From contig CALREW010000001.1 of the NCBI GenBank assembly GCA_943356415.1, positions 357,745-421,744 on the forward strand: a stretch of DNA of 64,000 bases, given 5' to 3'. The translations under genes were made by a program, and so were the position numbers. Of this stretch, positions 39,439 through 62,714 are shown piece by piece. The first letter of the stretch is position 1, and each line of letters starts with the position of its first letter. The notes under the pieces were generated by a model, which was given only the letters and a program-made list of their open reading frames with translations, made no database searches and had not been told where the DNA came from. The stretch comes from Candidatus Nomurabacteria bacterium (GTDB taxonomy: Bacteria > Patescibacteriota > Minisyncoccia > Phycocordibacterales > SBAW01).

Positions 39439-39516
39439 GGCGCACCTCTAGTGCTAGGGTCAATTTCCAGAATGGACCGTACTACAAATTTTCTAAACCG
39501 TCAATAGAAAGGCTCC

Positions 39517-41585: not shown

Positions 41586-41593
41586 AGCGTGAA

Positions 41594-45339: not shown

Positions 45340-45350
45340 GCGCGTCCGCC

Positions 45351-47249
45351 TTACTCTTCGTCGTCGCGAATCATGTTCTTAAGTACCTCCTCCGGCAACT
45401 CAGCTGGTTTGCGTGATGAAGATTGAACTGGCGCCTCTTCTTTCTTCCTTGGCTGAGTCGGTGCGTCGTCGAGACTGAGTTCCGGACCCACGTCCGGTGG
45501 AGCTTTAGGCTTAGCGGCAGGAGCTACTCGATTGAGCGCCTCGCCAAGCTTCTCACTTGTCGCTTTAGCAAGCGCATCCTTCAACGAATTCGTACCTTCA
45601 AGTGGTGGTCGATTAGGCTTCACTTCCGGTCTAACTGACTGGGCAGCAGGTCTCGGTGGGCGATTTTCATGACGACGCTCTGCTGGCACTGGAGGACGAG
45701 GTGGGTGGGATGCTTGGGGAGCTTTTTGTGTTACCGGTGGGCGAGGCGCAGAAGGACGCGGCGCTGCTGGGCGAGGAGAAGAGGTCGGGCCCAACACGGC
45801 CGCAGCCTGCTTAGCTATAAGGTCTTGGGAACGTACGCCTCGAGGAGTAAACGCCGGTCCCGGAGGGATGCCGAGCGCGTCGCGTTCTGCGCGACGAGCA
45901 TCCCGTTCCTTCTTTTTTTCAGCCTCCTTTGCAAGCTCAGTCTCAGAAGGAGCAAGTGCATCGTCTTGCCATTCATCAATACTTTTCTCTACATTAGCGC
46001 GCGGGGCGCCGTAGGTGCGTCGTGAAAATGCAATTATTTCATCGACATGCATCGTTGGTGGCGCATCAAACGGTGGCAGCGTTGCTGCTGAAAATGGCGC
46101 AGAACCTACACCATCTATTTGTAAGGTGAGGTATATCTGTGCTTTTCCAAGATTAACCAGGTCCGTTGCTTCAAACTTTGGTTTGAATATGGTTTCCAAT
46201 ACTTCAGCATCAAACGGCCCCACTCGGAAGGTTGCTGTAGTGCCGACGTTGCCGAATACCGCATCGCGCACTTCTTCCTCCATTTGCTCAATATACTGGT
46301 GCGCAATAATAAGATTGAGTTTATATTTTCGCGCTTCAGAGAGAATGTCAGCGAATGATTCATTTGCGAATGACTGGAACTCGTCTACGTAGAAATAGAA
46401 CGACGAAGTCTCAGCCATCTTCCCAGCTGAGAGATCCGCACGTGACATCGCTGCAAGATATATCTTGGTCACCAACATTGAACCTAGGAGCGACGCATTT
46501 CCCTCTCCGACACGCCCTTTTGAGAGGTTGATGATCATGATCTTTCTCTCGTCCATCATCTGACGGATATCGAAAGAAGACTTTGGCTGGCCGATGATAT
46601 TGCGAATCAGAGGATTCGATGTGAACTGACCTATTTTATTTTGGATTGCAGGCGTGGCCTCCTGAGTGTAACGATCACCGTAGTTGGCGAACTCATCTAC
46701 CCAGAAACTCTTAACCGTCGTATCGGTTATATTCTCAACAACTTTCTTACGGAAATTCTTGTTGATGAGCATGCGGTTCACATCAAGGAGTGTCGAGTCC
46801 GGATATTCAAGCAATGCAAGTAGCGTGTTGGAGAGGATGTATTCCATACGCGCACTCCATGCATCTACCCAAATCTTGCGGAACGCAGACATGAGTCCAG
46901 AGACCACCAAGTGACGTTTGTCATAGCCGACGTCCTCCATGACGTTAAAGGCAATGGGGTATTCCATATCAAACGGCGCAAAGTAGAGCACGTCGTTGAT
47001 GCGGTCCTCCGGTACGTACTCCAACAGTTTGTCAGCAGTTGAGCCGTGTGGATCGATAAAGGCGACGCCCTCTCCATTGCGGATATCTTGTATTGCCATG
47101 TTCTCAAGCATGGTCGATTTACCCATGCCCGTCTTGCCGATGACGTACATGTGCTTCGCACGATCAATACGCTTGATACCGAAGGGTATCTTTTGGCCTC
47201 GGGAGTCGGTCGAGGCAAAGTACGTTATTTTGCCCGGGTCTTCACGCAT
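45351..47249 (-). CDS. TraD/VirD4-like (type IV coupling protein family) P-loop ATPase with Pro/Ala-rich disordered C-terminus
   Basis: Walker A GKTGMGKST. TraG/TraD-family organization. The last ~170 aa are low-complexity PRP/PAA repeats. Confidence 0.5.
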   Translation of the reverse strand: MREDPGKITYFASTDSRGQKIPFGIKRIDRAKHMYVIGKTGMGKSTMLENMAIQDIRNGEGVAFIDPHGSTADKLLEYVPEDRINDVLYFAPFDMEYPIAFNVMEDVGYDKRHLVVSGLMSAFRKIWVDAWSARMEYILSNTLLALLEYPDSTLLDVNRMLINKNFRKKVVENITDTTVKSFWVDEFANYGDRYTQEATPAIQNKIGQFTSNPLIRNIIGQPKSSFDIRQMMDERKIMIINLSKGRVGEGNASLLGSMLVTKIYLAAMSRADLSAGKMAETSSFYFYVDEFQSFANESFADILSEARKYKLNLIIAHQYIEQMEEEVRDAVFGNVGTTATFRVGPFDAEVLETIFKPKFEATDLVNLGKAQIYLTLQIDGVGSAPFSAATLPPFDAPPTMHVDEIIAFSRRTYGAPRANVEKSIDEWQDDALAPSETELAKEAEKKKERDARRAERDALGIPPGPAFTPRGVRSQDLIAKQAAAVLGPTSSPRPAAPRPSAPRPPVTQKAPQASHPPRPPVPAERRHENRPPRPAAQSVRPEVKPNRPPLEGTNSLKDALAKATSEKLGEALNRVAPAAKPKAPPDVGPELSLDDAPTQPRKKEEAPVQSSSRKPAELPEEVLKNMIRDDEE

Positions 47250-47276: not shown

Positions 47277-48002
47277 CTAGCTCTTGGTGCGCAGAAAGAC
47301 GCGTTTTAACTCGTCACCATCTCGTAGTTCCTCGGCGCTCTTCTCAAGCACAACCTTTCCATACGCAAGTACGTATGCGCGCTCCGCAACTGAGAGTACT
47401 GAAGCAATGCTGTGTTCTACGATAACGACCGCAATAGAACGGAGACGGTGTATCTCTTGTATAAGCGTAAATACTTCTTTCACTATTTTTGGCGAAAGAC
47501 CGAGCGATGGCTCATCAAGAAGAAGCACCCGCGGATCAGATATAAGCGCCCGAGCAATGGTGAGCATCTGTTGTTGACCGCCAGAGAGAAGTCCCGCTCG
47601 CTCGTGTCTCTTTTCTTTCAGGATTGGAAATATTGAAAATACTTCTTCTATCGCGCCACGGACATCTGCACGGTTAGGAAGAACGTAGCCGCCGAGCTCG
47701 AGATTCTCGAACACCGTGAGGCTTTTAAACACTTGTCTGCCTTGTGGCACATACGCGATGCCGCGGGCAACCATTTCGTGGGCGCGCGGTGTAAGTTCTT
47801 GTCCATGTAGATACACACCTCCTTTCGATAACGGTGCGATGCCAAGAAGTGCTTTGAGTACCGTGGACTTCCCTGCTCCGTTGGGGCCCATTAAGGCAAC
47901 AATTTCTCCCTCATCAATACGAATATTGACTCCTTCGAGCGCACGTATACCGCCGTAGTCAACCGTTGCATCGCGCAGTTCAAGTAAAAGTTCTTGCTTC
48001 AT
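47277..48002 (-). CDS. livF: branched-chain amino acid ABC transporter ATP-binding protein LivF
   Basis: GPNGAGKST...LSGGQQQML...LLLDEP. Start set to the internal Met. Confidence 0.85.
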   Translation of the reverse strand: MKQELLLELRDATVDYGGIRALEGVNIRIDEGEIVALMGPNGAGKSTVLKALLGIAPLSKGGVYLHGQELTPRAHEMVARGIAYVPQGRQVFKSLTVFENLELGGYVLPNRADVRGAIEEVFSIFPILKEKRHERAGLLSGGQQQMLTIARALISDPRVLLLDEPSLGLSPKIVKEVFTLIQEIHRLRSIAVVIVEHSIASVLSVAERAYVLAYGKVVLEKSAEELRDGDELKRVFLRTKS

Positions 48003-48006
48003 ACAC

Positions 48007-48741
48007 TTATTTTCCAAGATATGCCTCAACAACTGCCGGCTCAGCGAGTACCTGCGCAGGTGTTCCCTCAGCGAGAAGTCTGCCGCTATCGAGTACATAG
48101 CAGTGGTCAGCTAAGTTGCGCACAATATCCATATCATGCTCGACAAGCACCACTGCCGAACCTGAATCGCGAAGCTCCTTGATGCAGGTGCCCACAGTGG
48201 TTCTCATCTCTGGAAAAAGTCCCGCAAATGGTTCATCAAAAAAGTAGACTTTTGAACGCATCGAGATAGCCCGGGCTATCTCAAGCAATTTTCGCTGCCC
48301 ATACGAAAGTTCTTCGCCAAGCGCATCTTTCTTCTCCCACAGGCCAACACGACGCAGGACATCTTCTGCTGCATCAAGGTGTAACTTAGTGTGCCGTTCA
48401 AAAAGAGCACCCCACACATTGCGCTCAGTGAGAACAAACAAAATATTATCGAGGACCGATATTTGCTCAATAACGCGGACGCTCTGAAAGGTGCGCGTCA
48501 TGCCCAACGCCGCAATATCTTGCGGGCGGACACTGGAGAGCTCCACATCGTCACTCACAACCACCGTACCACCATCCATCGGGAGTATACCTGTAACCAC
48601 ATTTATAAAAGTGGTTTTCCCCGAGCCGTTAGGCCCGATAAGAGCCGTAACCTTTCCCCCTTCAAAAGAAAGTGACACATGGTCAACAGCGCTCACCCCA
48701 CCGAAGCGCTTAAGAAGCTTCTTGGTCTGAAGGAATGCCAT
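48007..48741 (-). CDS. livG: branched-chain amino acid ABC transporter ATP-binding protein LivG
   Basis: GPNGSGKTT, LSYGQRKLLEIARA. Confidence 0.85.
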   Translation of the reverse strand: MAFLQTKKLLKRFGGVSAVDHVSLSFEGGKVTALIGPNGSGKTTFINVVTGILPMDGGTVVVSDDVELSSVRPQDIAALGMTRTFQSVRVIEQISVLDNILFVLTERNVWGALFERHTKLHLDAAEDVLRRVGLWEKKDALGEELSYGQRKLLEIARAISMRSKVYFFDEPFAGLFPEMRTTVGTCIKELRDSGSAVVLVEHDMDIVRNLADHCYVLDSGRLLAEGTPAQVLAEPAVVEAYLGK

Positions 48742-48782
48742 GAGACAACTATACGGCCGCTTAGCGCCCCTACAAAGTAGTG

Positions 48783-49931
48783 TTAGTAGCTAATATCTGT
48801 CGGCACACCACCCTTAATGACACGTACGGTAAAACCGAGATCAGAGTTGCCTGCGGCATCAAGCGAGTAAGTGCCCATCAAACCCTGATAATTTTTTACA
48901 TTCATGAGAAGCCATTGCTGCACCTTAGTACTGTCATCACCTACTGCACGAAGTGCTGACGCAATCATCATCATGCCGTCATAGGTTGAAGCGGAATGGA
49001 ATGGTATCGGGGATGGTCCACCGTACTCTTTCTCATACCTCTCAAAAAACGCTTTGCTCCCTGCTCCCGCGGTGTCATATGCCGGATCAGCAAAATAGAT
49101 ACCGTCGAGCGATCCTACAATCCGCTTCACATCACCATTAGCTGCGAGCGTAAAGTCAGTAAAGAGCGGTGGTGTAAACCCAAGCTCACGAGACTGTTTG
49201 ATGAACTGTGCAGCGTTTGTCCCAAGCTGAGAGAGAATAAGGATAGCCTCAGGTTTCGATTCGCGTACCGAAGTGATCAGCGTTCGATAGTCAGTAGTGT
49301 TTGGTTGGAAGCGCTCTGATTTTACGATGACACCCCCTTTCTCTTTAAAGGTCTTCTCAAAGGTGTTCTGGATGTCAGTGGTGTAATCAGTAACCTCGCT
49401 TATAGTAGCCGCCTTCGTATATCCAAGGCGGATCATTGCCTCTGCCAAATTCTGTCCCGCAAGAATATCTGCGTTTGCGATACGAAAAATATAGTCGCCT
49501 GCTTCATCGACATTTTTGCCACCAGTTACAGGCGTCAGCACCACCGTGTGCGTCTGATTGGCTATAGGTGCATATGCGATAGTCCCGTTGCTCGAAGTCC
49601 CTCCGATGACGTACCTAATCCCATCGGCGTTGATGAGTTTTTGCAATGCGCTAACACCATCCTTGCTTGTGTAGCCTGCATTCTCGATAACAAGCTCAAT
49701 AGGACGGCCGCTGATACCTCCGTCGGCATTTATATCTGCTGCGGCAAGCTTTGCAGTCTTAACGATGTTCTCTCCCACAACAGCGAAATCTCCAGTGAGA
49801 AGCGACGCCACGCCTATCTTTATGGATTCTTTAGAATTGTCCGCAGGTGTATTTTTTGATTGCGTTGTAAACCAAATGCCCGCTGCGATTACAAGGAGGA
49901 GGACAACTACAACGCCGACTCTCTTTTGCAT
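48783..49931 (-). CDS. ABC transporter substrate-binding protein (Leu/Ile/Val-binding, type I PBP)
   Basis: N-terminal signal anchor and LivK-like fold. Confidence 0.8.
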   Translation of the reverse strand: MQKRVGVVVVLLLVIAAGIWFTTQSKNTPADNSKESIKIGVASLLTGDFAVVGENIVKTAKLAAADINADGGISGRPIELVIENAGYTSKDGVSALQKLINADGIRYVIGGTSSNGTIAYAPIANQTHTVVLTPVTGGKNVDEAGDYIFRIANADILAGQNLAEAMIRLGYTKAATISEVTDYTTDIQNTFEKTFKEKGGVIVKSERFQPNTTDYRTLITSVRESKPEAILILSQLGTNAAQFIKQSRELGFTPPLFTDFTLAANGDVKRIVGSLDGIYFADPAYDTAGAGSKAFFERYEKEYGGPSPIPFHSASTYDGMMMIASALRAVGDDSTKVQQWLLMNVKNYQGLMGTYSLDAAGNSDLGFTVRVIKGGVPTDISY

Positions 49932-50005
49932 GAAATATCGCTTATGGCTATGCGCCTATTCCACACTATTCTTAGGAAAAGACAAGTATCTTTCCTGGGT
50001 GGAGT

Positions 50006-51130
50006 TTACTCAATTTCGACGAACTTCCCGTCTTTAATGGTCTTGATCACGAACTCAATGTTGCGTATCTGATGCTTCTCGTTAAAGCTCACTTCCTCAG
50101 CGACAGTCCCTGGGATGCTCACATCAAGCAGAGCTTCACGAACACCCGCACGCTTCCCGTCTGTTTTGCGCAACGCTTCAATAAGCACATTCGTTGCGTC
50201 ATAAGCATTAAGTCCACTGAGACCCACTGGCACACCATTGTAAGTTGCTGCATACTTCTCTTGAAATACCTCTCCATTTTTAGTGGTTCGTCCGTGGGTG
50301 TAAATCACACCTTCAAGTGCGGACCCAAAATTTTCAACAAGAGTTGCATCCTCAATATCAGTAAGATTGAAGAATTTCACATCAAGACCAAGATCCTTTG
50401 CTTGCTTAAAGAATTTTGCTTTCGTCGCAGGATTAGCAAACACAGCGAAAATACCGTCGGAATGAATGCTTTTTAATTCAACAATCGATGTCCGGAAGTC
50501 TGAAAAGCCAAGAGGAAATTTGTATGACTTGCTGATGCTGAGTCCGTGCGCAGGAGCGCGCTCCTCAAAGAGAGCTGCCATTGTTGACCCAAACGTATCC
50601 TCGTCATGAAGTATCACTATGTTCTTGTTGCCGCTTGCAGCGATGTACGTTTCGAGCGCATCAACTTCACCTTGCTGTGGAAACCAAGTCGAAAACACAT
50701 AATCCGAGACGGTTCCATCATGGACCAAAGATTCCATTGCCATCGAAGGAGAAACAATAGCGACACGGCGTTCATTCATGACTGAAAAAACTCCCTGAAA
50801 CGCATCTCCCCACGTGGGCCCGATGACGGCAGCCACGTGATCGGCATCAACAAGTTTTATTGCGGCGTTCACAGTTGCCTTGGCATCACACGCCATATCC
50901 TCCACAACGAGCTCTATCTGTTTGCCGTTGATGCCACCTTTTTCATTAGCCTCAGCAACTGCGAGTTGGATTGCATGCAATTCTCCCTCACCCCAGGATG
51001 CACAATAGCCTGAAAGCCCTAAGGCAGCCCCAATCCGTATAGATTCCGCATCGCGCCGCGTCGTCCATGCCGCCGCTATGACCAAAATACCTATAATTAA
51101 CAATGCGCTTACCCATATGGCCTTTTTCAT
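50006..51130 (-). CDS. ABC transporter substrate-binding protein (LivK-like), second copy
   Basis: Same family as the binding proteins at 48783..49931 and 53759..54904. Confidence 0.8.
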   Translation of the reverse strand: MKKAIWVSALLIIGILVIAAAWTTRRDAESIRIGAALGLSGYCASWGEGELHAIQLAVAEANEKGGINGKQIELVVEDMACDAKATVNAAIKLVDADHVAAVIGPTWGDAFQGVFSVMNERRVAIVSPSMAMESLVHDGTVSDYVFSTWFPQQGEVDALETYIAASGNKNIVILHDEDTFGSTMAALFEERAPAHGLSISKSYKFPLGFSDFRTSIVELKSIHSDGIFAVFANPATKAKFFKQAKDLGLDVKFFNLTDIEDATLVENFGSALEGVIYTHGRTTKNGEVFQEKYAATYNGVPVGLSGLNAYDATNVLIEALRKTDGKRAGVREALLDVSIPGTVAEEVSFNEKHQIRNIEFVIKTIKDGKFVEIE

Positions 51131-51162
51131 ATGGCCATATAAAGCAACAAAACTTTAATTCT

Positions 51163-51246
51163 AGCAATATGATTGACAATTTATTTACATATAAACAAAG
51201 CAAATATTGACTATATTTGCCTATTTTGTTAATATTATTGTCAATT
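51163..51246. promoter_or_regulatory. AT-rich divergent promoter region with an inverted pair of TTGACAAT motifs plus a TTGACTAT half-site
   Basis: TTGACAAT at 51173-51180, TTGACTAT at 51207-51214, ATTGTCAA at 51237-51244. Confidence 0.4.
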
Positions 51247-51999
51247 ATGATAGATAAAGAACTAATTGCCACCCTTAAGGGGGTCGGATTCGATGAAAAG
51301 GAAGCTCGTGTGTACTTGGCTACCCTCGAGCTTGGCGACGCTCAGGTCTCCCAAATAGCAGAAAAGGCGGAGCTGAAGCGTCCCATTGTCTACTTCGTAC
51401 TAGACCGCCTCAAAGCACGCGGCTATGTGCAGCATTTTGGCTCAGGCAACGTAAAACGGTTCTCCGCTGTTGAACCAAGCCGTCTTCTTGCAACATCGCA
51501 GACGGCGGTCGAGGAGTTTCGCTTTATGTTGCCTCTTATTCATGCGCTTCAAGACAAAGGCAAAGGAAAACCACGCATCGAATATTTTCAAGGCCTCGAT
51601 GCGGTCCTTTCTATATACGGGCAACTTGAGAAAGAGAAAGATGTTCGTTTCGTGACGAATGTACAAAAGCTGACGCCTATAATGGCAAAAGAAATAGAGA
51701 TGTGGGCCCGCAATTATGAAAGCAAGCGTAAAGATACTCGTGCGCACAAAGTACTGGTCTCAGACAACCAAACCGACACTGCATGGGCCACGCGCGTTGT
51801 AAAAGGAAGTGCTGATGTGCGCATCCTCCCTGGTCAACAAACTGAGATGGACTTCTCTATCAGCAAGGGAATGCTGTGTATTACTTCGTTTGATCCCCTC
51901 TTTATCGTGGTTATCCACTCTGAAAAAATAGCTCGCTCGTCTGCTCTACTTTTTGATTTAGCGTGGGAGAGTTCAAAGAAGGTCTCTCTTAAGAAATAA
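51247..51999 (+). CDS. TrmB-family HTH transcriptional regulator
   Basis: N-terminal wHTH LGFDEKEARVYLATLELGDAQVSQIAEKAELKRPIVYFVLDRLKARGYV. Confidence 0.6.
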   Translation: MIDKELIATLKGVGFDEKEARVYLATLELGDAQVSQIAEKAELKRPIVYFVLDRLKARGYVQHFGSGNVKRFSAVEPSRLLATSQTAVEEFRFMLPLIHALQDKGKGKPRIEYFQGLDAVLSIYGQLEKEKDVRFVTNVQKLTPIMAKEIEMWARNYESKRKDTRAHKVLVSDNQTDTAWATRVVKGSADVRILPGQQTEMDFSISKGMLCITSFDPLFIVVIHSEKIARSSALLFDLAWESSKKVSLKK

Positions 52000-52000
52000 C

Positions 52001-52870
52001 TTAATTCATTCTGAATTTGCCGAGAAACCCCTGAGGCCTATACAGCATGAACAAAACAAGAATCGCTCCGTAGGTCACCTGCCTCATTTGCGCTGCTACG
52101 TCCGATGGAAAGCCTAAGAAACGCAGCGCTTCAGGAAGCACTATCAGAAAGAAAGCGCCAGCAAGTGCTCCTTCGTGTGAGGCAAGGCCGCCAAGAATGA
52201 TAATGGCGAGAATAAAGATAGATTCATTGAGCGAGAAACTCGATGGATCAATAAACGTGATGTAGCTCGCGAGCAATGCCCCAGCGAGCGCTGCGAGCAT
52301 TGCCGCAATAACAAACACCACGAGCTTGAAGTACGGGGTCGCGTAGCCAAATACTTGCACCATATTCTCATCCTCGCGTATCGCAGTGAGCACTCGACCA
52401 AAAGACGAACGCGTGAGGTACCAACAAACTCCGTAGACAATCGCACCAAGGATGATGCAGAGAATAAGAAACATAACGTTGTCAGAAAACGAAATGCCAA
52501 AAAGTTCCGGTCTATGAATACCCGGTATTCCTAGAGGACCACGCGTTAAACTCTGCCAATTGAGAAGGATGCTGAAGATAATGACGTTAAACCCAAACGA
52601 CCCGAGCGCATAATAGTCACCACGAAAGCGTGAAAGAACGGCGCCGATAACCAGCGCCACAACACCAGAAATAACCATACCAAGCAGCATTGCAGTGAAA
52701 AATCCGAACCCCTGATTGATCATCAAGAGCGCGGTGCCGTATGCACCGATGCCATAAAAAGCAGCGTGGGTAATGGAGAGAAGCCCGGCGTAACCGACGA
52801 TTAAATCGAGCGAAAGCCCAAGCATCGCGTAAATAGAAACCAGAATTGCTATGTGCAGTAGATACTCCAT
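52001..52870 (-). CDS. livM: branched-chain amino acid ABC transporter permease LivM
   Basis: Polytopic ABC-type permease of the LivH/LivM family. Confidence 0.8.
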   Translation of the reverse strand: MEYLLHIAILVSIYAMLGLSLDLIVGYAGLLSITHAAFYGIGAYGTALLMINQGFGFFTAMLLGMVISGVVALVIGAVLSRFRGDYYALGSFGFNVIIFSILLNWQSLTRGPLGIPGIHRPELFGISFSDNVMFLILCIILGAIVYGVCWYLTRSSFGRVLTAIREDENMVQVFGYATPYFKLVVFVIAAMLAALAGALLASYITFIDPSSFSLNESIFILAIIILGGLASHEGALAGAFFLIVLPEALRFLGFPSDVAAQMRQVTYGAILVLFMLYRPQGFLGKFRMN

Positions 52871-53737
52871 TTATTTTGAGAGAATACCTTTCGGTCGGAA
52901 TAGCAAAAAAGCGATCAGCACCGCAAACGCAATGGCATCTTTCCACTCCCCTGCAAACTGCCACGCCCCAAGATTTTCAATAAGAGCCAAGAGGAATGCG
53001 CCAAGGACGGCTCCGTAGATAGAACCTATACCGCCGATGATGGCGGCAATCACTCCTTTAAGAAGGAGGCTCATCCCCATCAAAGGCTCGATGCCGGTAT
53101 CAAACCCAACGGCAATACCCGACAGCCCACCAATCGCACCTCCTACCGCAGCGACGATGCCAAGAATCCTGGGACTGTTTATACCGACAATACTTGCAAC
53201 CGTACTGTCATCGGCGACAGCACGCACCGCTTTGCCAAAGAGCGTTCTCGACAGAACGATACCCACCCCCGTCATAATGACGAGTCCCGATATAAAGATG
53301 AGCGCTTGGACATCCGTTATGACACCGCCTGCAATATTGAACGTACGCGTACTGCCGATATTTTTGGAGAGCGTCTGGAATTGACTCGAGAAAATAATGG
53401 CAATAACCGCTTGGATGATGGTGAGTACGCCAAGCGAGGCAATAAGCAATATCGTTCCCGATGCTTTTCTTTCGCGCAGTTTGCGATAGATAAATCGCTC
53501 AACCAAAAAGGCAAGCAGACCCGCGGTAGCGACGCCAATACCAATCGCAAGCCACACAGGTAGATCAATCTGTTTGTAGGACCAATAGGTGGCGTAGCCT
53601 CCAACAGCAATAAGCGCCCCGTACCCGAGATCGAAAAACTTCGCCGTGCTGTACATCAGCGTGAAGCCCAACGCGATAAGCGTATAGATAGCCCCGGCGA
53701 TAACGGCATTTAGGAGTATCTGGACGAGAATATCCAT
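52871..53737 (-). CDS. livH: branched-chain amino acid ABC transporter permease LivH
   Basis: Polytopic ABC-type permease of the LivH/LivM family. Confidence 0.8.
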   Translation of the reverse strand: MDILVQILLNAVIAGAIYTLIALGFTLMYSTAKFFDLGYGALIAVGGYATYWSYKQIDLPVWLAIGIGVATAGLLAFLVERFIYRKLRERKASGTILLIASLGVLTIIQAVIAIIFSSQFQTLSKNIGSTRTFNIAGGVITDVQALIFISGLVIMTGVGIVLSRTLFGKAVRAVADDSTVASIVGINSPRILGIVAAVGGAIGGLSGIAVGFDTGIEPLMGMSLLLKGVIAAIIGGIGSIYGAVLGAFLLALIENLGAWQFAGEWKDAIAFAVLIAFLLFRPKGILSK

Positions 53738-53758
53738 GTACTTCCTAGCCTACCATTC

Positions 53759-54904
53759 CTACTTCACTATCTCCGCAGAGCCATTGTGCACGAGATGCAC
53801 CTCATACTGCGCGGTCTTTAGATCTCGATCGGCGTCAAAACTGATTTCAGAGAGCGCTACTCCTTCGGTGTAATTAACGGCAGCAAGCGCATCTCTAACC
53901 TTCTGAGAATCAGTGCCGACCGAACTTATAACCGAGGCGAGGAGGCGGAACGCATCGTATCCAAGCACCGAGTAGATATTGATGTCGGTCCCGGTGCCTT
54001 GTTTAAGTTTCGTTGCGAACGCCTCTGGCTGGTTAAACTTTCCAACGCTATACATGGCACCTTCAGCTTCTGGCACGGAGGTGAACTCCTTGAGATCAAG
54101 TGCATCTCCACCAAAACGTACAGCGCTAAGACCGATAGCCTTCGCCTGTTTTACGGCTACAACACCTGAGCCAGGATACAGCGCCATGTAGAGCGCTTCA
54201 GGATCTGCTGCTTTAATTTTCGACAGCTCGGTGCGCATATCGGTTGCTGTTTGAGTCACCCCTTCATTCTCGACAACTTCTCCCCCAAGCTCCTTGAAAC
54301 GCGCCGCAAAGACGTCACTGAGACCCTTGCCGTAATCATTGTTTACGTAAAGTACTGCAGCTTTGTGTTTGCCAAGCGTGTTGTAAATATATTCTGCAGC
54401 AAACTTTCCCTGGAAGGCGTCGGACGGATACGTGCGGAACACATACTCGCCTGCTTTCGTTAGTCCTGGTGCAGACGCCCAAAATACCGTGGGCACATGA
54501 TTCGCTTGTGCGATTGGGAGTCCCGGACCGGCCGCAGATGAGCACAGTGGGCCAATAATTGCAGCAACCTTATCGAGCGATACCAACTTATTAAATACAT
54601 CTGCACCGTCCTTGGCACATTTATCATCTTCAAAAATAACTTCGACCTGTCTGCCACCAATACCACCAGCGTCGTTTATTTCCTTTTGTGCAAGCTCAAT
54701 GCCAGCCTTTGTTTGCTCACCCAAGCTTGCAGCCTCCCCCGTAAGAGGCAGCGACGCACCGATGCGAATAGGCCCTGTTTCCGTAGGAGCTTTTTTAGTA
54801 GCGACGCCAAACCAAATAACCGCCGCTACAATAACCACTGCACCCAGGCCTAACCAAAGATTTTTTGACATACAAGCTGTTACTGCTTCCCTATAAATAG
54901 ACAC
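53759..54904 (-). CDS. ABC transporter substrate-binding protein (LivK-like), third copy
   Basis: Type I periplasmic-binding-protein fold with N-terminal anchor. Confidence 0.8.
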   Translation of the reverse strand: MSIYREAVTACMSKNLWLGLGAVVIVAAVIWFGVATKKAPTETGPIRIGASLPLTGEAASLGEQTKAGIELAQKEINDAGGIGGRQVEVIFEDDKCAKDGADVFNKLVSLDKVAAIIGPLCSSAAGPGLPIAQANHVPTVFWASAPGLTKAGEYVFRTYPSDAFQGKFAAEYIYNTLGKHKAAVLYVNNDYGKGLSDVFAARFKELGGEVVENEGVTQTATDMRTELSKIKAADPEALYMALYPGSGVVAVKQAKAIGLSAVRFGGDALDLKEFTSVPEAEGAMYSVGKFNQPEAFATKLKQGTGTDINIYSVLGYDAFRLLASVISSVGTDSQKVRDALAAVNYTEGVALSEISFDADRDLKTAQYEVHLVHNGSAEIVK

Positions 54905-54969: not shown

Positions 54970-56235
54970 TTATTGCGCCTTGAGAACCTGCCTGAGGCTC
55001 GAGTATTTATTACCCGGGTCCCAGAAAAGATACCCATCGAGACCCGCATCGTGCGCTGCCTGTATTTGGTTAGCCACCATAGTCGGGGTGTAGTCCACGG
55101 GGTAGTCGAAATCCTGAAGCCACGGACGAATTTTACTCTTATCGTATGCCGGCTTTAGATACACCGCAGGAGTCGTCGTACCGATGCGCGAGAAAGCGGC
55201 TCCTGCAATGCCGGTCTGTGTTGCAGTCGTACGACGCACTGCAGCATCAAGCACAAATTTCATAAGGTCATAGGTATGCGCGTTCGGATCTTTCCAACCG
55301 TTGAAGCCGCTTGGGTAATGCGATGGATACACCATCGGTGCAATGTAATCGAAGTACGGCAGAGCACGTTCAAGCACCTGTCCGATATTAAGATCGTCAG
55401 TGTTTGTTGTTGTCATGCCAAAAAGGTCAGCCGACATCTTTACTCCCGTATCCTTCAGATTTGCATGTAGATAACTAAAAAATTCTTCAACCGCTTCTTG
55501 TTTGGTCTTTCCTGGAGAAAGGGTATACACCGCATCGGCCATATTTCCGTCAGAAGGAAAACGTATGTAATCGAAATTTATTTCATCAAAACCAGTTGCG
55601 TACGACGCCTTTGCAAGTTTCACCACGCGTTCCCAATAGGGCTTTGCGCCGACCTGGATAAAAGAGAGCCCTTTACGATCTTTCCACGGACCGCCGTGAC
55701 TCGCACTTTGCACTGCAAGTTCTGGATGGGCCTTCGTGTAGGTTGGATCCTGGAAGACGGTGACACGTCCAATGACATAAATATTTTTGCTGTGGAGCAT
55801 TTCTATAAAAGAGCGCATGTCTTTGGCGCCACAGGCATCTGATACCCAGTCCTTGAGGTCCGGGTCATCCGGCGTAAAGGATATTTTGCCGGTGTAATCC
55901 TTGATGTCGATAACCACCGCATTAAGTTCCGTTGTATCTATCAAATCAACGAGCTGTTTTCTAAAATTTGGAGTGCCAACAACACACTGCGACATGTAGA
56001 CGGCTTTTACATTGGTCGGCACACCGACGTGCGCTGCAACTGAGACAACAGGCACGTCACTTTCTTCACTTGAAGTAGCGGTGCTGCTTGCGACATCGGC
56101 ATCACCTCGCACGCTCACCGAGGAGAGTGCGGGAATGACAAACTCAAATGCGAGAAAACACACCGTCGCTACAACGACGACGCCTGTGAAGAGAAGTTTT
56201 TTACCCGACCCGAGGGCGATTTGTTTGCGTTTCAT
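54970..56235 (-). CDS. putative glycoside-hydrolase-like TIM-barrel protein (DUF4015/GHL family) with N-terminal membrane anchor
   Basis: N-terminal TM then ...VKAVYMSQCVVGTPNF...LNAVVIDIKDYTGKISF...IYVIGRVTVFQDP pattern of this family. Confidence 0.45.
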   Translation of the reverse strand: MKRKQIALGSGKKLLFTGVVVVATVCFLAFEFVIPALSSVSVRGDADVASSTATSSEESDVPVVSVAAHVGVPTNVKAVYMSQCVVGTPNFRKQLVDLIDTTELNAVVIDIKDYTGKISFTPDDPDLKDWVSDACGAKDMRSFIEMLHSKNIYVIGRVTVFQDPTYTKAHPELAVQSASHGGPWKDRKGLSFIQVGAKPYWERVVKLAKASYATGFDEINFDYIRFPSDGNMADAVYTLSPGKTKQEAVEEFFSYLHANLKDTGVKMSADLFGMTTTNTDDLNIGQVLERALPYFDYIAPMVYPSHYPSGFNGWKDPNAHTYDLMKFVLDAAVRRTTATQTGIAGAAFSRIGTTTPAVYLKPAYDKSKIRPWLQDFDYPVDYTPTMVANQIQAAHDAGLDGYLFWDPGNKYSSLRQVLKAQ

Positions 56236-56576: not shown

Positions 56577-57257
56577 CTACTGCGCCTCAACAATAACGAC
56601 AAATTCCCCTCGCTGCTTCTCAGGGGTCTCTTCCAGGTATGCCAGGAGCTCCCCTGCAGTTCCTACCCGACTTTCCTCATGAAATTTGGTGAGTTCTCTG
56701 TAGATACCAATTCGGCGCTCCCCACATTGGGTAGCGAGCGACTGCAACGCTTTCATAATCCGGTGTGGAGACTCATAGAAAATGCTTGTCCGCTCATCCG
56801 TGGCAATAGTCTTAAAAAGCGTCTCTCTCCCCTTCTTCTGGGGCAAAAAGCCATAAAACGTAAATGTTGAAACGCGAAGTCCCGCGATAGAAAGCGCCGC
56901 GGCAAGCGCCGAAGGACCTGGTATTGCCTCGATAATCACATCGTCTCCAAGGGCTTCCCGTGTCGCTCCTACCAACTCTCCCCCTGGATCAGAAACCCCT
57001 GGCGTCCCGGCGTCAGTCACCAACGCAAGATGTTTCCCTTCTTCAAGCAACTCGACAATTTTCTTTACCTTACTTGCACCACTATTTGCATGAAATGAGA
57101 GCGTCGGCGTGGTAATAGCAAAATGGGAGAGCAATTTCTTCGTGACACGCGTGTCCTCACAAAGAATGATGTCAGCCGCTTTCAAGACCGAAAGAGCTCG
57201 GAGCGTAATGTCTTCGAGATTTCCTATGGGGGTCGCAATGACGGAGAGTTTGGACAT
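56577..57257 (-). CDS. rsmI: 16S rRNA (cytidine1402-2'-O)-methyltransferase RsmI
   Basis: LSVIATPIGNLEDITLRALSVLKAADIILCEDTR tetrapyrrole-methylase-fold signature. Confidence 0.9.
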   Translation of the reverse strand: MSKLSVIATPIGNLEDITLRALSVLKAADIILCEDTRVTKKLLSHFAITTPTLSFHANSGASKVKKIVELLEEGKHLALVTDAGTPGVSDPGGELVGATREALGDDVIIEAIPGPSALAAALSIAGLRVSTFTFYGFLPQKKGRETLFKTIATDERTSIFYESPHRIMKALQSLATQCGERRIGIYRELTKFHEESRVGTAGELLAYLEETPEKQRGEFVVIVEAQ

Positions 57258-58743: not shown

Positions 58744-58888
58744 GCAACATTATGTCACAAAATATTTAATAATCAATATATCGCGTTTTCTCTTTACTAA
58801 CTCACTTTTCTCTGCGATTGTAATGCGCGGAACCGGTAGAGCCGGCTTTTTGTAACCCTGGATCACTGCTAAAGAAAGGCAGGGGCGC

Positions 58889-59794
58889 ATGCTCCGTAGA
58901 AATACCCCAAACAGCGACATCGCCCACCACGCAACTCGCGTAGGGCCGATGAAGATGGGTGCGGTGTCCGTCGGCGCATCGCTCTTCCCGGGACGTATCG
59001 ATGGCGTACAGACAAACTGGACTCTCGCGCGGCTCGAACTTGATGCTCCAGGCGTCGAGCGCGTCGTGCGCCTGCGTCAGGTTGCCGAAGCGCTGGGGCT
59101 GAAAACCATATGGTCCCCCTCCCCAGTGAAGTTCAACGGCCGCATCTGCTCGCGCAGCGAGCTGAAGATCCGCGTCTCGATTGACGCCACGCAAGACATC
59201 GCCATCATGCGTGGCATGGAAGCCGATGGGTGCCTCATCGCTCCGACCGAATCGCTCATCATGAGCGTCGGTGGATGTGCGGTCGTGGTCATGGAGTATC
59301 AGGGGCGCGTGGTCGCCGCGCATGCGGGACTCAAGTGCTTCTACGACCACGAGTTGGCGATCTCGGGCACGAAGACCCCAAACCGCGAACATGAAAGCGT
59401 CGTCGAGGCGGCAGGCCGAGCACTCACAACCGGTGGCGCTGCGCTTGACCCGACACAACTTCATGTGCGCGTACTGTTTCCGCTTTCGCGGAAAGTGCAC
59501 ACGCATTCGCTGAAGGACACGGTGCACGGAGCAAACAACGAACGGCTCCATCAACACTTCATCAAGAAGTGGGGCACCGGCTGTGGTGTGCGGCTCGAGC
59601 AGGATGGCCACACGCTCTCCTTCGATACGCTCGCCATCGTCCGAGCCCAGTGCGAGAGGTATTTCAAACTCGACCCGCTACAAGTCGAGCGCGTGGGGCC
59701 CTTCGCGGATGCCATTCCCTACGCCCATCACACTCGTCTTCCGGGCGAAGCGGGCAAGATGCGCAACCTGGTCGTCATCAAGAACTTGGGCTGA
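58889..59794 (+). CDS. hypothetical protein, possibly divergent PgeF/YfiH (DUF152, laccase-domain) family
   Basis: DGCLIAPTE...GGCAVVVMEYQGRVVAAHAGLKC parallels the YfiH DALIT...ADCLPVL...VAAAHAGWRG core. Otherwise weak. Confidence 0.35.
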   Translation: MLRRNTPNSDIAHHATRVGPMKMGAVSVGASLFPGRIDGVQTNWTLARLELDAPGVERVVRLRQVAEALGLKTIWSPSPVKFNGRICSRSELKIRVSIDATQDIAIMRGMEADGCLIAPTESLIMSVGGCAVVVMEYQGRVVAAHAGLKCFYDHELAISGTKTPNREHESVVEAAGRALTTGGAALDPTQLHVRVLFPLSRKVHTHSLKDTVHGANNERLHQHFIKKWGTGCGVRLEQDGHTLSFDTLAIVRAQCERYFKLDPLQVERVGPFADAIPYAHHTRLPGEAGKMRNLVVIKNLG

Positions 59795-59816
59795 CTTCTC
59801 GGTCACCCCGCACACC

Positions 59817-59854
59817 GCCGGCCCGAACTTCGGGGCCGGCGGTCGTCTTTTTAT
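59817..59854 (+). terminator. strong intrinsic terminator
   Basis: gccggccc-gaacttc-ggggccggc followed by ggtcgtctttttat. Confidence 0.7.
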
Positions 59855-59876: not shown

Positions 59877-61304
59877 ATGGCACGTATGAATCGCGAGCAC
59901 GTTCACTTTATAGGTATCGGTGGCGTTGGCATGAGCGCGGTGGCCAAAATACTTATCGACAGCGGTTCTACCGTCACCGGCTCAGACGAGGCAGTATATG
60001 AACCTGTTGCCTCCTACCTGACCTTAAGTGGCATCTCGTACAAAACACCCTACGCTGCCGAAAATATCCCCACTGATGTTAACCGCATTGTTGTCGGGAA
60101 AAACGCAAAATTAACCAAAGAAAATAATGCTGAGGTGCGCGAAGCATACGCACGAGGAGTCCCCGTTATTTCTTATCCTGAAATGCTCGCCGAACTTGCG
60201 CAAAACTCTGAACAGATTGTGATCGCGGGCAGTTACGGAAAATCGACTGCAACAGCGCTTATCGCACACTGCTTAACCGAAGCAAATCTTGACCCGTCCT
60301 ACTTTATAGGAGCCGTTCCCTTTTCCCCAAGCGAGAGTGGTCACACAGGGACTGGCAACCTTTTTGTCCTTGAAGGTGACGAATACCCATCCTCCAACGA
60401 AGACCCTCGCTCGAAGTTTCTTCATTTTTCTCCCCGTCACCTACTTCTTACTCCTCTCTCACACGACCATCTCAATATTTTCCCCACGGAAGAAGCGTAT
60501 CTAGCGCCATTTGTAGAACTCATAGCGAAAGTCCCGGCCGATGGTTCAGTGACCGTCGCACTGAGTGGCGAACTCTCCAAAAAATTCCTTGCCGACACGA
60601 ATCGAAACGCAACGACATACAGCGTAAGTGAGGGCGATTGGCACGCGAGCAATATTGTCTACGGCGCTCCAACGACATTTTCCATACTAAATAACGGAAA
60701 GCATATTGTTGATATTTCGACCCAAGAGCTTGGTTCACATGCAGTTGAAAACATTATTGGCGTTGCAGCACTTCTTCTTGGTCAATCGCTTATCACCGCA
60801 GAACAATTTGCAGGTGCCATCAGTTCATTCAAAGGCATCCGTCGTAGACTCGATCTGAAATCAACAAAAACATCCGTGCGCATCTACGAAGGATTTGGCT
60901 CATCCATAGAAAAAGCGAAGGCTGCAATCGCGGCGATGAAATTACATTTCCCCGACCGACGCCTCCTCATTGCCTTTGAGCCGCACACCTTCTCATGGCG
61001 CAACCGGGGAGCACTACCCTGGTATGACAGTGTCTTTGCCGGCGCAGCAGAAGTATTTGTCTACGAACCACCGTCCCACGGCGCCGGCACACATGACCAA
61101 ATAAACCTTGAAGAGATAGTTGCGCGCGTGCAAAGCGCGGGTATTAAAGCGGTGGGTGTTGAAAATGCGGAAGCCGGGCTTTCTGCTATTGCGCAAACAC
61201 TTACGGCGGACGACGTTATTCTTATACTCACCTCAGGAGACATGGGCGGTATGGTGGAAGCATTGCCGAAACTTGCAGAAGAACACTACCCGAAACAGAC
61301 ATGA
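59877..61304 (+). CDS. Mur ligase family protein, Mpl-like (UDP-N-acetylmuramate:L-Ala-gamma-D-Glu-meso-DAP ligase) or MurC
   Basis: HFIGIGGVGMSAVAKIL N-terminus. GSYGKSTATALIAHCL P-loop. EGDEYPSSNEDPRSKFLHFSPRHLLLTPLSHDH resembles the Mpl DEYD..FFDKRSKFxHYxP...EFDH block. Confidence 0.75.
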   Translation: MARMNREHVHFIGIGGVGMSAVAKILIDSGSTVTGSDEAVYEPVASYLTLSGISYKTPYAAENIPTDVNRIVVGKNAKLTKENNAEVREAYARGVPVISYPEMLAELAQNSEQIVIAGSYGKSTATALIAHCLTEANLDPSYFIGAVPFSPSESGHTGTGNLFVLEGDEYPSSNEDPRSKFLHFSPRHLLLTPLSHDHLNIFPTEEAYLAPFVELIAKVPADGSVTVALSGELSKKFLADTNRNATTYSVSEGDWHASNIVYGAPTTFSILNNGKHIVDISTQELGSHAVENIIGVAALLLGQSLITAEQFAGAISSFKGIRRRLDLKSTKTSVRIYEGFGSSIEKAKAAIAAMKLHFPDRRLLIAFEPHTFSWRNRGALPWYDSVFAGAAEVFVYEPPSHGAGTHDQINLEEIVARVQSAGIKAVGVENAEAGLSAIAQTLTADDVILILTSGDMGGMVEALPKLAEEHYPKQT

Positions 61305-62050
61305 AAATCTGGCACAGCGAATTTCTTCAAAACTACGGGACGTATACGTTCGGCTACGGCGTATATGCGTCACTTGAGAAAAGTGACAAACTCTCTGCAA
61401 TATACGAGCAAGGCTTTCTTCCGTATTCCGGATCAAAGGAAGTAACCGACTCGCTGTATATGGCCCGCAGTGCTCGTGTCAGCCTTCCACAATTTGAACC
61501 CTCAAGCGAGAACCGTCGCATTTTAAAAAAGTTTGACGGGGTTTTTACTAAAAGCCCAGTAACCGCTGCAACATTCGCAGAAGACAAAGAACGTATTGCT
61601 TTTGCGCTCTCCTATTTTGCCAAGCGCCACGATGCAAAACTGATGCCTGAGGAGCGTTTGAAACTCATACTCGCTCACGCCGTCGCTCCATGTGCGGTTC
61701 AGTATGAAAAAGACGGTAAACTCGCCGCATTGACACTGCTTGATGGAGATACTGCGATGCAACATTTCTGGTACTCCTTCTACGACCTCTCGATGGTGGA
61801 TCAATCGCTCGGCATGTGGCTAATGCTCGATGCCGCACGTGATGCAAAAGCAGAAGGCAAAGAGCATTTCTACGTAGGAACGGTCTACGGCGAAAAGGCG
61901 CTCTACAAAACAAACTTCCCCGCTCTCTCTTGGTGGGACGGCAAAGACTGGCAAGAAGATGTGTCGGCACTTAAAGCACGGGCGCGCACTGATAGTGAGC
62001 GTACCGCGGGCGGGCGGGATGTGTGGAAGGCGGAAGAAGAATTATTTTAA
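61301..62050 (+). CDS. arginyl/leucyl-tRNA--protein transferase-like (ATE_N + ATE_C, Bpt-like) protein
   Basis: HFWYSFYD...SLGMWLMLDAARDAKAEGKEHFYVGTV...ALYKTNF matches the Bpt/ATE_C VYTFFDP...SLGTYxILWQIExAKxLGLPYxYLGY...MAYKxxF signature. ATGA overlap with the upstream Mur ligase. Confidence 0.65.
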   Translation: MKIWHSEFLQNYGTYTFGYGVYASLEKSDKLSAIYEQGFLPYSGSKEVTDSLYMARSARVSLPQFEPSSENRRILKKFDGVFTKSPVTAATFAEDKERIAFALSYFAKRHDAKLMPEERLKLILAHAVAPCAVQYEKDGKLAALTLLDGDTAMQHFWYSFYDLSMVDQSLGMWLMLDAARDAKAEGKEHFYVGTVYGEKALYKTNFPALSWWDGKDWQEDVSALKARARTDSERTAGGRDVWKAEEELF

Positions 62051-62057: not shown

Positions 62058-62095
62058 AAAACAAAAGACGCCCCCGTGGGGCGTCTTTTGTTTTG
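62058..62095. terminator. bidirectional intrinsic terminator between convergent genes
   Basis: aaaacaaaa-gacgcccc-cgt-ggggcgtc-ttttgttttg. Confidence 0.7.
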
Positions 62096-62108: not shown

Positions 62109-62714
62109 TTAGTTGAGTGGCTTCTCCGGCGGGACAAGCACTCCGCTTACCAAGTACACAATGCCGTTTTTAGCTTTGTATTGCTTGATGATGAAAGCGC
62201 CGTTTACCATCGCGCTATTGCCTGGGTCGTGCACCGCGAAGTTAAGTGCGTCTTTTGAGAGCGCCATGATAGTGCTCGTCTCAACCGCTGAGGTATCCAC
62301 CGCGCGACCGGAGACAACATGGTATTGAACCAAGCGCTTCTTTTGCGTCGCCGACATATTCGTCAACGTCCCTGGTGTCAGAAGATTGAACGCTCCGTTC
62401 GTTGGTACAAATATCGTATAGGTACCCGTCTTTGATATCGACGCCGCTACCCCCGTTGAGGCAAAAAGTGATGCAAACGAACTTGCCTCGGGAATACCCG
62501 CAATAACTGACGCGACGTCAGAATTCGTTCGGTCTTCACGCACAATCGGCGTTGCCGCTGGTGTGGTATCCGTAGTTGTCGCTGTGGGAGAAGGTGTAAC
62601 CACAACATCAGTGCCACTGCGATCACCGTTCCACCACCACACACCAAAACCAATGACAACGATAAGAATAAGACCGCCCACAACCCACGCACCGGTGTTA
62701 CTTGTGCCGTTCAT
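62109..62714 (-). CDS. fasciclin (FAS1) domain protein with N-terminal membrane anchor
   Basis: TIFVPTNGAFNLL...VQYHVVSG...NGIVYLVSGVLVP. Confidence 0.8.
   Translation of the reverse strand: MNGTSNTGAWVVGGLILIVVIGFGVWWWNGDRSGTDVVVTPSPTATTTDTTPAATPIVREDRTNSDVASVIAGIPEASSFASLFASTGVAASISKTGTYTIFVPTNGAFNLLTPGTLTNMSATQKKRLVQYHVVSGRAVDTSAVETSTIMALSKDALNFAVHDPGNSAMVNGAFIIKQYKAKNGIVYLVSGVLVPPEKPLN

Follow-up and report, generated by a model that had tools for sequence, protein, structure and literature searches.

Organization of the locus

The window analysed here is a stretch of 64,000 nucleotides from a Candidatus Nomurabacteria bacterium (assembly GCA_943356415.1, contig CALREW010000001.1, positions 357,745 to 421,744 of the forward strand). 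It contains an open reading frame (ORF) for a Mur ligase of the MurC/Mpl family (59877..61304, + strand, 475 aa, with an alternative start at 59886), followed by a transferase-like ORF of 249 aa (61301..62050, +) that is positive for the ATE_C domain. The start codon (ATG) of the transferase ORF and the stop codon (TGA) of the ligase ORF share the sequence ATGA (61301..61304, +); a preliminary description of this DNA had reported this overlap, with which the ORF coordinates agree, and, as read from the sequence, it implies translational coupling of the two ORFs. The upstream gene (58889..59794, +, 301 aa), a "hypothetical" one that the preliminary description had overlooked, belongs to the same module and encodes a putative divergent PgeF/YfiH (DUF152)-type amidase, as judged from its predicted fold, its triad and its positional homologues. 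We argue below that the 249-aa protein is very probably an aminoacyl-tRNA-dependent transferase acting, together with this ligase, in the cytoplasmic pathway of peptidoglycan-precursor synthesis.

A chance ORF or a mis-called gene was ruled out by hundreds of full-length homologues, the protein collection holding 480 homologues of the transferase and >1700 of the ligase. No Mur ligase other than ORF 59877..61304 was found in the window, which also contains no tRNA gene, no Rfam match and no dcw cluster.

Conservation of the ligase–transferase pair

The surroundings of the transferase gene were compared in two samples: 80 loci of the Paceibacteria type, to which the window itself belongs, from species-representative genomes, and 80 metagenome loci (L088–L167) of a second subfamily (Dojkabacteria type, with members from Ca. 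Dojkabacteria), the transferase and ligase of which are 27% and 31% identical, respectively, to the proteins of the window. In the Paceibacteria-type sample, the ligase gene is located directly upstream of the transferase gene, on the same strand, in 59 of the 80 loci, and in one further locus (L028) the two genes are adjacent in the reverse order, so that the pair is found in 60 of the 72 loci with enough flanking sequence. The other 20 loci comprise 12 without a ligase despite at least 1.5 kb of upstream sequence, four of them from genomes outside the Candidate Phyla Radiation (CPR), and eight on contigs that are too short. The distance between the two genes could be measured in 45 Paceibacteria loci; it is 20 bp or less in 40 of them, and the genes overlap by 4 bp in 17.

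The second subfamily has the opposite order, with the transferase followed by an adjacent ligase in 66 of the 80 metagenome loci, and its ligase carries the same characteristic loop (see below). No ligase was detected in 14 loci, 11 of which have less than 900 bp of downstream sequence. One locus (L092) has the gene order of the window, and in another (L149, Ga0208863_1009317, 175..2232) a single ORF of 685 aa combines an N-terminal transferase and a C-terminal ligase joined by the linker KKSVDNSQK. In 12 loci, a gene for a 124-aa "23S rRNA-intervening sequence protein" (PF05635) adjoins the transferase gene at a median distance of about 560 bp downstream, and in several loci a gene of this family (e.g., L117, 237..611) occupies a gap of 300–900 bp between transferase and ligase.

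The linkage within Paceibacteria is by itself weak evidence, because synteny in this clade is high, and the argument therefore rests on the second lineage, the inverted gene order of which rules out mere clade synteny as the explanation for the adjacency. Since the adjacency survives a divergence to about 30% identity, an inversion of gene order, a change of surroundings and a fusion, the ligase and the transferase would appear to work together, and we consider their pairing to be the strongest evidence for a joint function. The preliminary description had proposed co-conservation as a check on its interpretation, and the pair is indeed kept in two diverged lineages, in opposite orders, and as one fusion.

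A transferase of the ATE/Bpt branch

The 249-aa protein matches ATE_C (PF04377) over residues 103–207 with 35 bits (gathering score 25), and the motifs HFWYSFYD, SLGMWLML, FYVGTVYG and ALYKTNF are all present, in agreement with the ATE_C/Bpt signature that had been attributed to its C-terminal half. It also reaches a borderline score with Acetyltransf_6 (22.2 bits for a gathering score of 22), the only clan relative of FemAB (PF02388) among its Pfam matches at E<=1; neither FemAB itself nor ATE_N (PF04376) was matched at this threshold. The seven Bpt/arginyltransferase equivalog models (PRK01305) gave 25–51 bits against cut-offs of 170–358, so every one of them is missed by more than 100 bits, and the transferase of the second subfamily scored 27–36 bits on these models. 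The metal-binding cysteines of ATE_N (CxxC...CC) are as defined in PMC9351520. The sole cysteine of the 249-aa protein is C131, and the first 100 residues contain no conserved cysteine column in 60 homologues, nor in the distant subfamilies, which bears out the earlier remark that the N-terminal part lacks the ATE_N cysteines.

A structure predicted with AlphaFold2 (AF2) from 60 homologues had a mean confidence (pLDDT) of 93.3. In Foldseek searches of the PDB, the best near full-length match was ATE1 (E 2.9e-10, TMq up to 0.68), followed by the aminoacyl-tRNA-dependent C-domains of MprF, by FemX and by the peptide synthase Sba18. Because these are the best near full-length matches, in this order, the modelled protein is assigned to the tandem-GNAT aminoacyl-tRNA transferases of the ATE/Bpt branch; the sequence profile of the transferase had no match in the PDB. 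The FemX structures 7z5y, 1ne9 and 4ii9 gave E-values of 2-3e-6 and TMq values of 0.38–0.45, and the MprF/aminoacyl-phosphatidylglycerol synthase C-domains gave E-values of 2e-7 to 1e-5.

The rank of the MprF domains as the second-best fold group raises the question of whether the acceptor might be, as in an MprF-like reaction, a hydroxyl group on a lipid, on a sugar nucleotide or on a teichoic-acid-like polymer, and the window does encode a CDP-glycerol glycerophosphotransferase and many glycosyltransferases. However, the TM-scores of MprF (0.41–0.48) are below those of ATE1, the transferase has no membrane domain, and the genes conserved beside it are those of the ligase, MraY and the PgeF-like protein rather than lipid or teichoic-acid genes. 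An acceptor of this kind is therefore very improbable.

The active-site region was compared with yeast Ate1 (sequence verified against the PDB) by hhalign and hmmsearch, with an alignment that covers only the C-terminal GNAT domain. Both methods aligned Y202-K203 of the transferase with Y303-K304 of Ate1, which are essential and equivalent to F304-K305 of FemX (PMC9351520). Residues Y202, K203 and H155 and the motifs RS.R, SSENRR and YxG are invariant in the Paceibacteria family and in the distant subfamily, and Y105 and H110 form a Y-x4-H motif with the same spacing as Y173/H178 of Ate1. The invariant basic helix SENRRILKKF resembles, by its position, the tRNA-binding basic helix of the superfamily and may have the same role. 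Ate1 requires E277 to use its Arg donor; in a low-confidence alignment, the transferase family has no acidic residue there but an alanine or a variable residue, and arginine is for this reason an unlikely donor. The acidic N-terminal residue of the Ate1 substrate is held in a pocket that includes R80 and Y25, and the Ate1 motif GFRRSG appears to correspond to GFLPYSG in the transferase, in an alignment made by eye only, as profile methods do not align the N-terminal 100 residues.

An exhaustive profile search yielded 742 clusters of transferases at 50% identity, 129 of them at E<=1e-30 and nearly all with a length of 215–270 aa. Several CPR classes are represented, Dojkabacteria and Saccharimonadales among them (named homologues are from Adler-, Kaiser-, Yanofsky-, Jorgensen-, Nomura- and Zambryskibacteria), together with a few Bacteroidota and one metagenome-assembled genome (MAG) of Bdellovibrionales. 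In one family member (P0264, 809 aa, on a 57 kb ENA contig), the transferase domain is joined to PPDK_N ATP-binding and PEP-utilizers mobile domains, of the PEP synthase/phosphotransferase type; this may be a gene-call artefact or a case in which the domain serves another purpose.

The best sequence and fold matches of the protein are thus Bpt/arginyltransferase models and ATE1, and its 249 aa are the usual size of a bacterial Bpt. It might accordingly be a divergent but otherwise ordinary Bpt of the Clp-dependent N-degron pathway, whose adjacency to the ligase is an inherited order without function; its Tyr-Lys pair is of the ATE type and not the Phe-Lys of FemX (PMC9351520), and the generally high synteny of Paceibacteria would also suit this explanation. 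We nevertheless consider it improbable, given an adjacency that outlives 27–31% identity, inversion of gene order and changed neighbours and includes one fusion, the absence of ATE_N and its cysteines, and the margin of more than 100 bits by which all the equivalog cut-offs were missed. No clp, aat or infA-type neighbours were found in the 160 loci, and tblastn with E. coli ClpS found no ClpS-like gene below E=2 in the window or in 1.15 Mb of local loci, which counts only slightly against an N-degron role, as the sample is local, not genome-wide. The possible coupling of peptidoglycan recycling with N-end-rule proteolysis, also raised in the preliminary description, found no support in this sample. 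The pattern that it had named as contrary to a precursor role, an unconserved pair co-occurring with clpS, is not the one observed here, in that the pair is conserved in two lineages.

A distinct clade of MurC/Mpl-type ligases

The ligase contains the three Pfam Mur domains, with 68 bits for the N-terminal, 56 bits for the middle and 21.8 bits for the C-terminal domain, the last below its gathering score of 28.4. It did not reach the cut-off of either NCBIfam model, scoring 257 bits with murC (TIGR01082, cut-off 335) and 186 bits with mpl (TIGR01081, cut-off 389), and the ligase of the second subfamily scored 250 and 246 bits, respectively. The GSYGKST (P-loop Lys), EGDEY/EGDE (Mg-binding Glu) and HDH (His of the DH motif) motifs are intact and are invariant in 100 orthologues.

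The three domains differ in their closest relatives in the PDB. The N-terminal domain is closer to MurC (3e-22) than to Mpl (6e-14), and VY-x-P and S-x-P motifs like those of Mpl were recognized in it by eye in a comparison with Mpl sequences. For the middle segment, Mpl is the best match (3e-10, vs 1e-4 for MurC), because of a shared seven-residue loop that MurC lacks, and the C-terminal domain leans marginally to Mpl (4e-6, vs 9e-5 for MurC). The sequence (S/T)AFFDKRSK is reported to be common to all Mpl enzymes and absent from the other Mur ligases (Das et al., PMC3060825). In the ligase of the window the corresponding loop reads PSSNEDPRSK; it has the same length and keeps the S, D and RSK residues, with AFF replaced, and SSN(T)DxRSKF is invariant across the 100 orthologues. 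Two pocket motifs set the clade apart: an invariant EGFGSS stands in place of DD(Y/F)(A/G)HHP (DDFAHHP in Mpl), and an invariant FEPHTFSWRNR occupies the position of QPHRYxRTR in MurC and EPRSNTMK in Mpl.

From these sequence features, we consider the ligase to be a clade of its own, neither canonical MurC nor canonical Mpl. Its orthologues are labelled Mpl by JGI and "Mur ligase family protein" by NCBI. The earlier label "Mpl/MurC-like" was right as to the family, but it is too simple for what appears to be a distinct clade with Mpl signatures.

It is conceivable that the transferase supplies the third substrate, which the ligase adds to UDP-MurNAc. It would aminoacylate the alpha-amine of free D-Glu or of a gamma-D-Glu-peptide, with Ala-tRNA as an example of a donor, and the ligase would load the di- or oligopeptide so formed on UDP-MurNAc, so that MurC and MurD would be partly bypassed and the PgeF-like amidase would remove wrong products. 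The Mpl-type signatures (the loop resembling the Mpl-only one, the Mpl-leaning C-terminal domain, VY-x-P and S-x-P) are in keeping with this idea, as is the loading of preformed peptides by Mpl (PMC3060825). The strict pairing with the first, UDP-MurNAc-binding ligase and the one fusion would also be accounted for, and the ATE/Bpt ancestry is suitable in that the acceptors of these enzymes are acidic N-terminal residues (Asp/Glu). Conversely, the Mpl-specific C-terminal residues are mostly not kept (EPHTFSWRN vs EPRSNTM, and EGFGSS vs DDFAHHP), and, to our knowledge, no enzyme of the ATE/Bpt family accepts a free amino acid or a D-residue. On balance, we regard this arrangement as unlikely. 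A broader proposal, that a tRNA-dependent aminoacyl-D-Glu or aminoacyl-(gamma-D-Glu-peptide) route with Mpl-like loading replaces MurC/MurD in much of the CPR, exploiting the ancestral preference for acidic acceptors and with the PgeF-like amidase proofreading the product, is distinctly unlikely.

A putative PgeF-like amidase as the third member

The 301-aa protein encoded upstream of the ligase has no Pfam match (E<=0.01) and no NCBIfam match (E<=0.001), and only four homologues were detectable by sequence in 5.8 billion proteins. The family evolves much faster than its two neighbours, with 20–25% identity among Paceibacteria. Nonetheless, an AF2 model from a four-sequence alignment (pLDDT 83.8) retrieved DUF152/YfiH/YlmD/PgeF proteins as all of the top 18 Foldseek matches in the PDB (E 1.3e-8 to 3.4e-6, TMt 0.58–0.67), the next match having an E-value of 0.1, and a profile search of the PDB with the family gave four weak top matches, all of them YfiH. 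The only invariant residues in 25 sequences of the family are A112, D113, C130 and H145, and HMMER aligned D113, C130 and H145 with the YfiH motifs RADA, TADC and HAGW, that is, with the catalytic triad Asp89-Cys107-His124 (PMC8844914). By its modelled fold and its triad, ORF 58889..59794 is thus a putative divergent amidase of the PgeF/YfiH type. Its homologues are found beside the pair in 30 of the 80 Paceibacteria loci, in 24 of them directly upstream of the pair and in four directly downstream of the transferase.

PgeF/YfiH cleaves UDP-MurNAc-Ser and UDP-MurNAc-Gly, the erroneous products of MurC (PMC12280929), so that this third member anchors the module on UDP-MurNAc-amino-acid chemistry. 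The activity of PgeF is directed mainly at monopeptide precursors, and is 1000-fold or more lower with dipeptide precursors (PMC8844914).

Gene surroundings in the two lineages

In the second subfamily, the gene immediately before that of the transferase is mraY in 68 of the 80 loci (TIGR00445, 184 bits for a cut-off of 192), with murF in turn before mraY in L161 (E 6e-36 against MurF of E. coli), and murB is located about 4.5 kb from the transferase in 26 loci. The cluster also includes a weak NlpC/P60 match upstream of mraY, a NUDIX protein and a pyridoxal-phosphate enzyme, and 30 loci (e.g., L118, 883..2514) encode, about 3 kb upstream of the transferase, a 546-aa fusion of a NUDIX domain with an ATP-grasp domain that is weakly Ddl/pseudomurein-ATP-grasp-like. 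MurF, in two loci, is the only further Mur ligase near the pair in this lineage, and no second Mur ligase was found within ±10 kb in the 80 Paceibacteria loci. The Paceibacteria flanks contain murB and Beta-lactamase2-type proteins, glutamate racemase (L005 and L016) and a class IV aminotransferase (L011, L012, L020 and L023) that could be either a branched-chain or a D-amino-acid enzyme (191 vs 182 bits). The window has a murB homologue (5611..6648, −) with 27% identity to murB of L114, at a distance of 53 kb from the module.

Two of these features favour a peptide supplied by the transferase to the ligase: the pair of the second lineage directly follows mraY, in the usual place of murD, and neighbours that could supply D-Glu (glutamate racemase and the class IV aminotransferase) recur, although the aminotransferase may be a branched-chain enzyme.

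Transferase genes without an adjacent ligase have other neighbours. Alanine racemase and MreB genes stand beside the transferase in L067, and a NUDIX and a sugar-1-phosphate nucleotidylyltransferase gene are present in L031, L063 and L067. In L054 (4856..7693), the transferase is followed by genes for a NanE-epimerase/AmgK-like kinase fusion, a RapZ-C domain protein and a sugar-1-phosphate nucleotidylyltransferase, a set that could serve the salvage of amino sugars (MurNAc/GlcNAc), with specific matches far below the cut-offs (64 bits vs 550 for AmgK, and 48–61 bits vs 250 for MurU); in L031, L054 and L067, scores of this kind do no more than hint that the neighbours are MurU or AmgK. The non-CPR members of the family (37–39% identity) have no ligase neighbour. 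The Saprospiraceae homologue is located downstream of PBP4 and an enolase-superfamily fragment, the genes of the Flavobacteriaceae (L083/L084) follow an EF-G paralogue and lie about 5.5 kb downstream of a murF homologue, and the transferase of the Bdellovibrionales MAG (L082, 5277..13659) appears to lie inside a tol-pal cluster (tolB-pal), as judged from the N-terminal sequences of its neighbours.

Such surroundings raise the possibility of a salvage route in auxotrophic episymbionts, in which the PgeF-like amidase would free stem peptides from (UDP-)MurNAc-peptides, the transferase would re-tailor the scavenged peptide and the Mpl-like ligase would re-attach peptides to the cell's own UDP-MurNAc. 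This route would be consistent with the Mpl-type signatures and the JGI label of the ligase, with the genes beside the unpaired transferases (the NanE/AmgK-like, RapZ-C and nucleotidylyltransferase set of L054 and the NUDIX set of L031, L063 and L067), with the weak NlpC/P60 match upstream of mraY in the second lineage and with PBP4 and the enolase-superfamily fragment in Saprospiraceae. The AmgK and MurU scores speak against it, however, and the second-lineage pair, amid mraY, murF and murB, looks like part of de novo synthesis. The 1000-fold or greater loss of PgeF activity on dipeptide precursors (PMC8844914) also fits it poorly, and salvage seems to us an unlikely function of the module.

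Proposed function of the module

As nearly all the neighbours of the pair are peptidoglycan-precursor genes, we favour a role in precursor synthesis over a role in the N-degron pathway. We propose that a transferase of the ATE/Bpt lineage lost the cysteine features of ATE_N and was recruited to the synthesis of peptidoglycan precursors, where it works only together with a special UDP-MurNAc ligase of the MurC/Mpl type, and that a PgeF-type amidase, which would hydrolyse UDP-MurNAc-amino-acid products, is also part of the module in Paceibacteria. The ligase, with other Mur ligases, would make a UDP-MurNAc-peptide; the transferase would then use a charged tRNA as its donor and join the amino acid, through a peptide bond, to a free amine of this peptide, most plausibly that of the side chain of residue 3, and the branch would be made before MraY transfers the precursor to the lipid carrier. 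Weissella FemX is described as adding an amino acid onto UDP-MurNAc-pentapeptide (PMC2175331, PMC2655667), and such a FemX-like addition to the free amine of a UDP-MurNAc-peptide, which the murF–mraY context fits, is the specific reaction that we rank first, tentatively and as quite possible rather than probable. The families and folds of the three proteins, their conserved catalytic residues and the deep linkage of their genes are the data from which we infer an aminoacyl-tRNA as the donor and a peptidoglycan precursor as the acceptor, as well as the amine and the amino acid concerned. The suggestion in the preliminary description that the protein aminoacylates a precursor rather than acting in the N-degron pathway thus gains support from gene linkage and from the peptidoglycan neighbours, all of it comparative genomics.

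Several observations weigh against the FemX-like reaction or the wider precursor role. The acceptor of FemX is a tri- or pentapeptide precursor made by MurE/MurF, yet the tightest partner of the transferase (and its fusion partner) is the first ligase, so that a relationship of consecutive steps would fit better than one of the FemX type. Peptide supply by the transferase and salvage explain this partner, and the Mpl features of the ligase, better than a FemX-like addition does. The closest relatives of the transferase in fold and sequence are the protein-modifying ATE1 and Bpt, not FemX, and the N-terminal acceptor region is outside the hhalign/hmmsearch alignment, which spans only the C-terminal GNAT domain. 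The apparent transferase–ligase fusion is known from a single 3.5-kb metagenome contig. Finally, in keeping with the generally high synteny of Paceibacteria, genes for RsmI and a DUF4015 protein likewise accompany the module in many loci; in the window, the DUF4015 protein (a putative glycosyl hydrolase) is encoded at 54970..56235 (−) and RsmI at 56577..57257 (−).

Significance of the module

Peptidoglycan synthesis is among the few complete biosynthetic pathways kept by CPR/Patescibacteria. The tRNA-dependent wall transferases of the Fem family and the ATE/Bpt enzymes are already known, and the relationship between the ATE/Bpt and Fem folds has long been noted (Rai et al. 2006, as cited in PMC9351520). 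A full-text literature search revealed no description of the module, nor of the Mur, Fem or ClpS content of Paceibacteria, and the same was true of CPR reviews. What appears to be new is the tight association, across CPR genomes, of an enzyme of the ATE/Bpt lineage with a PgeF-type amidase and with a MurC/Mpl-type ligase of a distinct clade. If our interpretation is correct, the "protein-tagging" branch of the aminoacyl-tRNA transferases was recruited to wall synthesis, CPR walls probably have a tRNA-dependent modification or a non-canonical route of assembly, and the labels "arginyl-tRNA–protein transferase" and "Mpl" on hundreds of CPR proteins are probably misleading. The module would also provide testable enzymes and a possible lineage-specific target.

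Other features of the window

A strong terminator-like hairpin with a T-run (59814..59853, +; stem of 11 bp with 10 G-C pairs) lies between the PgeF-like gene and the ligase gene, which suggests that, in this genome, the ligase and transferase genes may form a transcription unit of their own or one subject to attenuation. A second, G+C-rich hairpin, with an A-run on one side and a T-run on the other (62063..62094; AAAAGACGCCCC-CGT-GGGGCGTCTTTT then GTTTTG), was read by eye and was not among the hairpins given by the scan; it looks like a bidirectional terminator shared by the transferase gene and a convergent fasciclin-domain gene (62109..62714, −). The PgeF-like ORF is overlapped on the opposite strand by an ORF of 269 aa (58802..59611, −), which is probably spurious, because only the plus-strand ORF has positional homologues in relatives.

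Farther upstream, the window contains a large envelope-glycan region (14719..43821) with many glycosyltransferases of families GT1, GT2 and GT4, as well as NeuB, a B12-binding radical SAM enzyme, a GT47 exostosin-like protein, the CDP-glycerol glycerophosphotransferase mentioned above, two YfhO-like proteins, a Wzy_C/TPR protein and a flippase. It is followed by a gene for a TrwB/TraG-like coupling ATPase adjoining that of a secreted-looking protein with Lamin-tail and PKD domains (43849..47249, −), a pair that also occurs near the module in several relatives (L003 and L005), and by an ABC transporter of the branched-chain amino-acid type that has three separate Peripla_BP_6 binding proteins (47277..54904), which is consistent with amino-acid scavenging.

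Comparison with known systems

Among known enzymes, the transferase resembles Bpt and ATE1 in its ATE_C score above the gathering threshold, in its best whole-length fold match, in its Ate1-type Tyr-Lys pair and in its Y-x4-H spacing. It differs from them in lacking ATE_N and the zinc or Fe-S cysteines and in scoring far below the cut-offs of the equivalog models; it has GFLPYSG for GFRRSG (by eye) and no acidic residue at the E277 position (low-confidence alignment), and its genomic partners are peptidoglycan genes rather than clpS or aat.

With FemX, FemABX and MurM, the transferase shares a predicted tandem-GNAT aminoacyl-tRNA transferase fold (Foldseek E ~2e-6), borderline membership of the Acetyltransf_6 clan and a lysine following an aromatic residue at the catalytic position, and it is likewise a soluble protein, encoded among peptidoglycan-precursor genes. 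In contrast, it falls outside Pfam FemAB, its TM-scores to these proteins are lower (0.38–0.45), it has Tyr-Lys where FemX has Phe-Lys, and it is about 90 residues shorter. We know of no Fem enzyme with a MurC/Mpl-type ligase as its obligate partner.

The 301-aa protein is about 50 residues longer than PgeF/YfiH, matches no family model and has no conserved counterpart of YfiH His71 and Gln69 in its family, whereas the predicted DUF152 fold and the Asp-Cys-His triad are kept. The ligase, in turn, scores below both the MurC and the Mpl cut-offs, and the residues of the L-Ala pocket and of the Mpl peptide pocket are replaced by EGFGSS and EPHTFSWRNR. It nevertheless has in common with MurC and Mpl the three Mur domains, a UDP-MurNAc-type N-terminal domain (GIGGxGMS) and the P-loop, Glu and His motifs, and it resembles Mpl in particular in a loop of the same length that keeps D-x-RSKF, in the VY-x-P and S-x-P motifs recognized by eye and in the "EP" residues.

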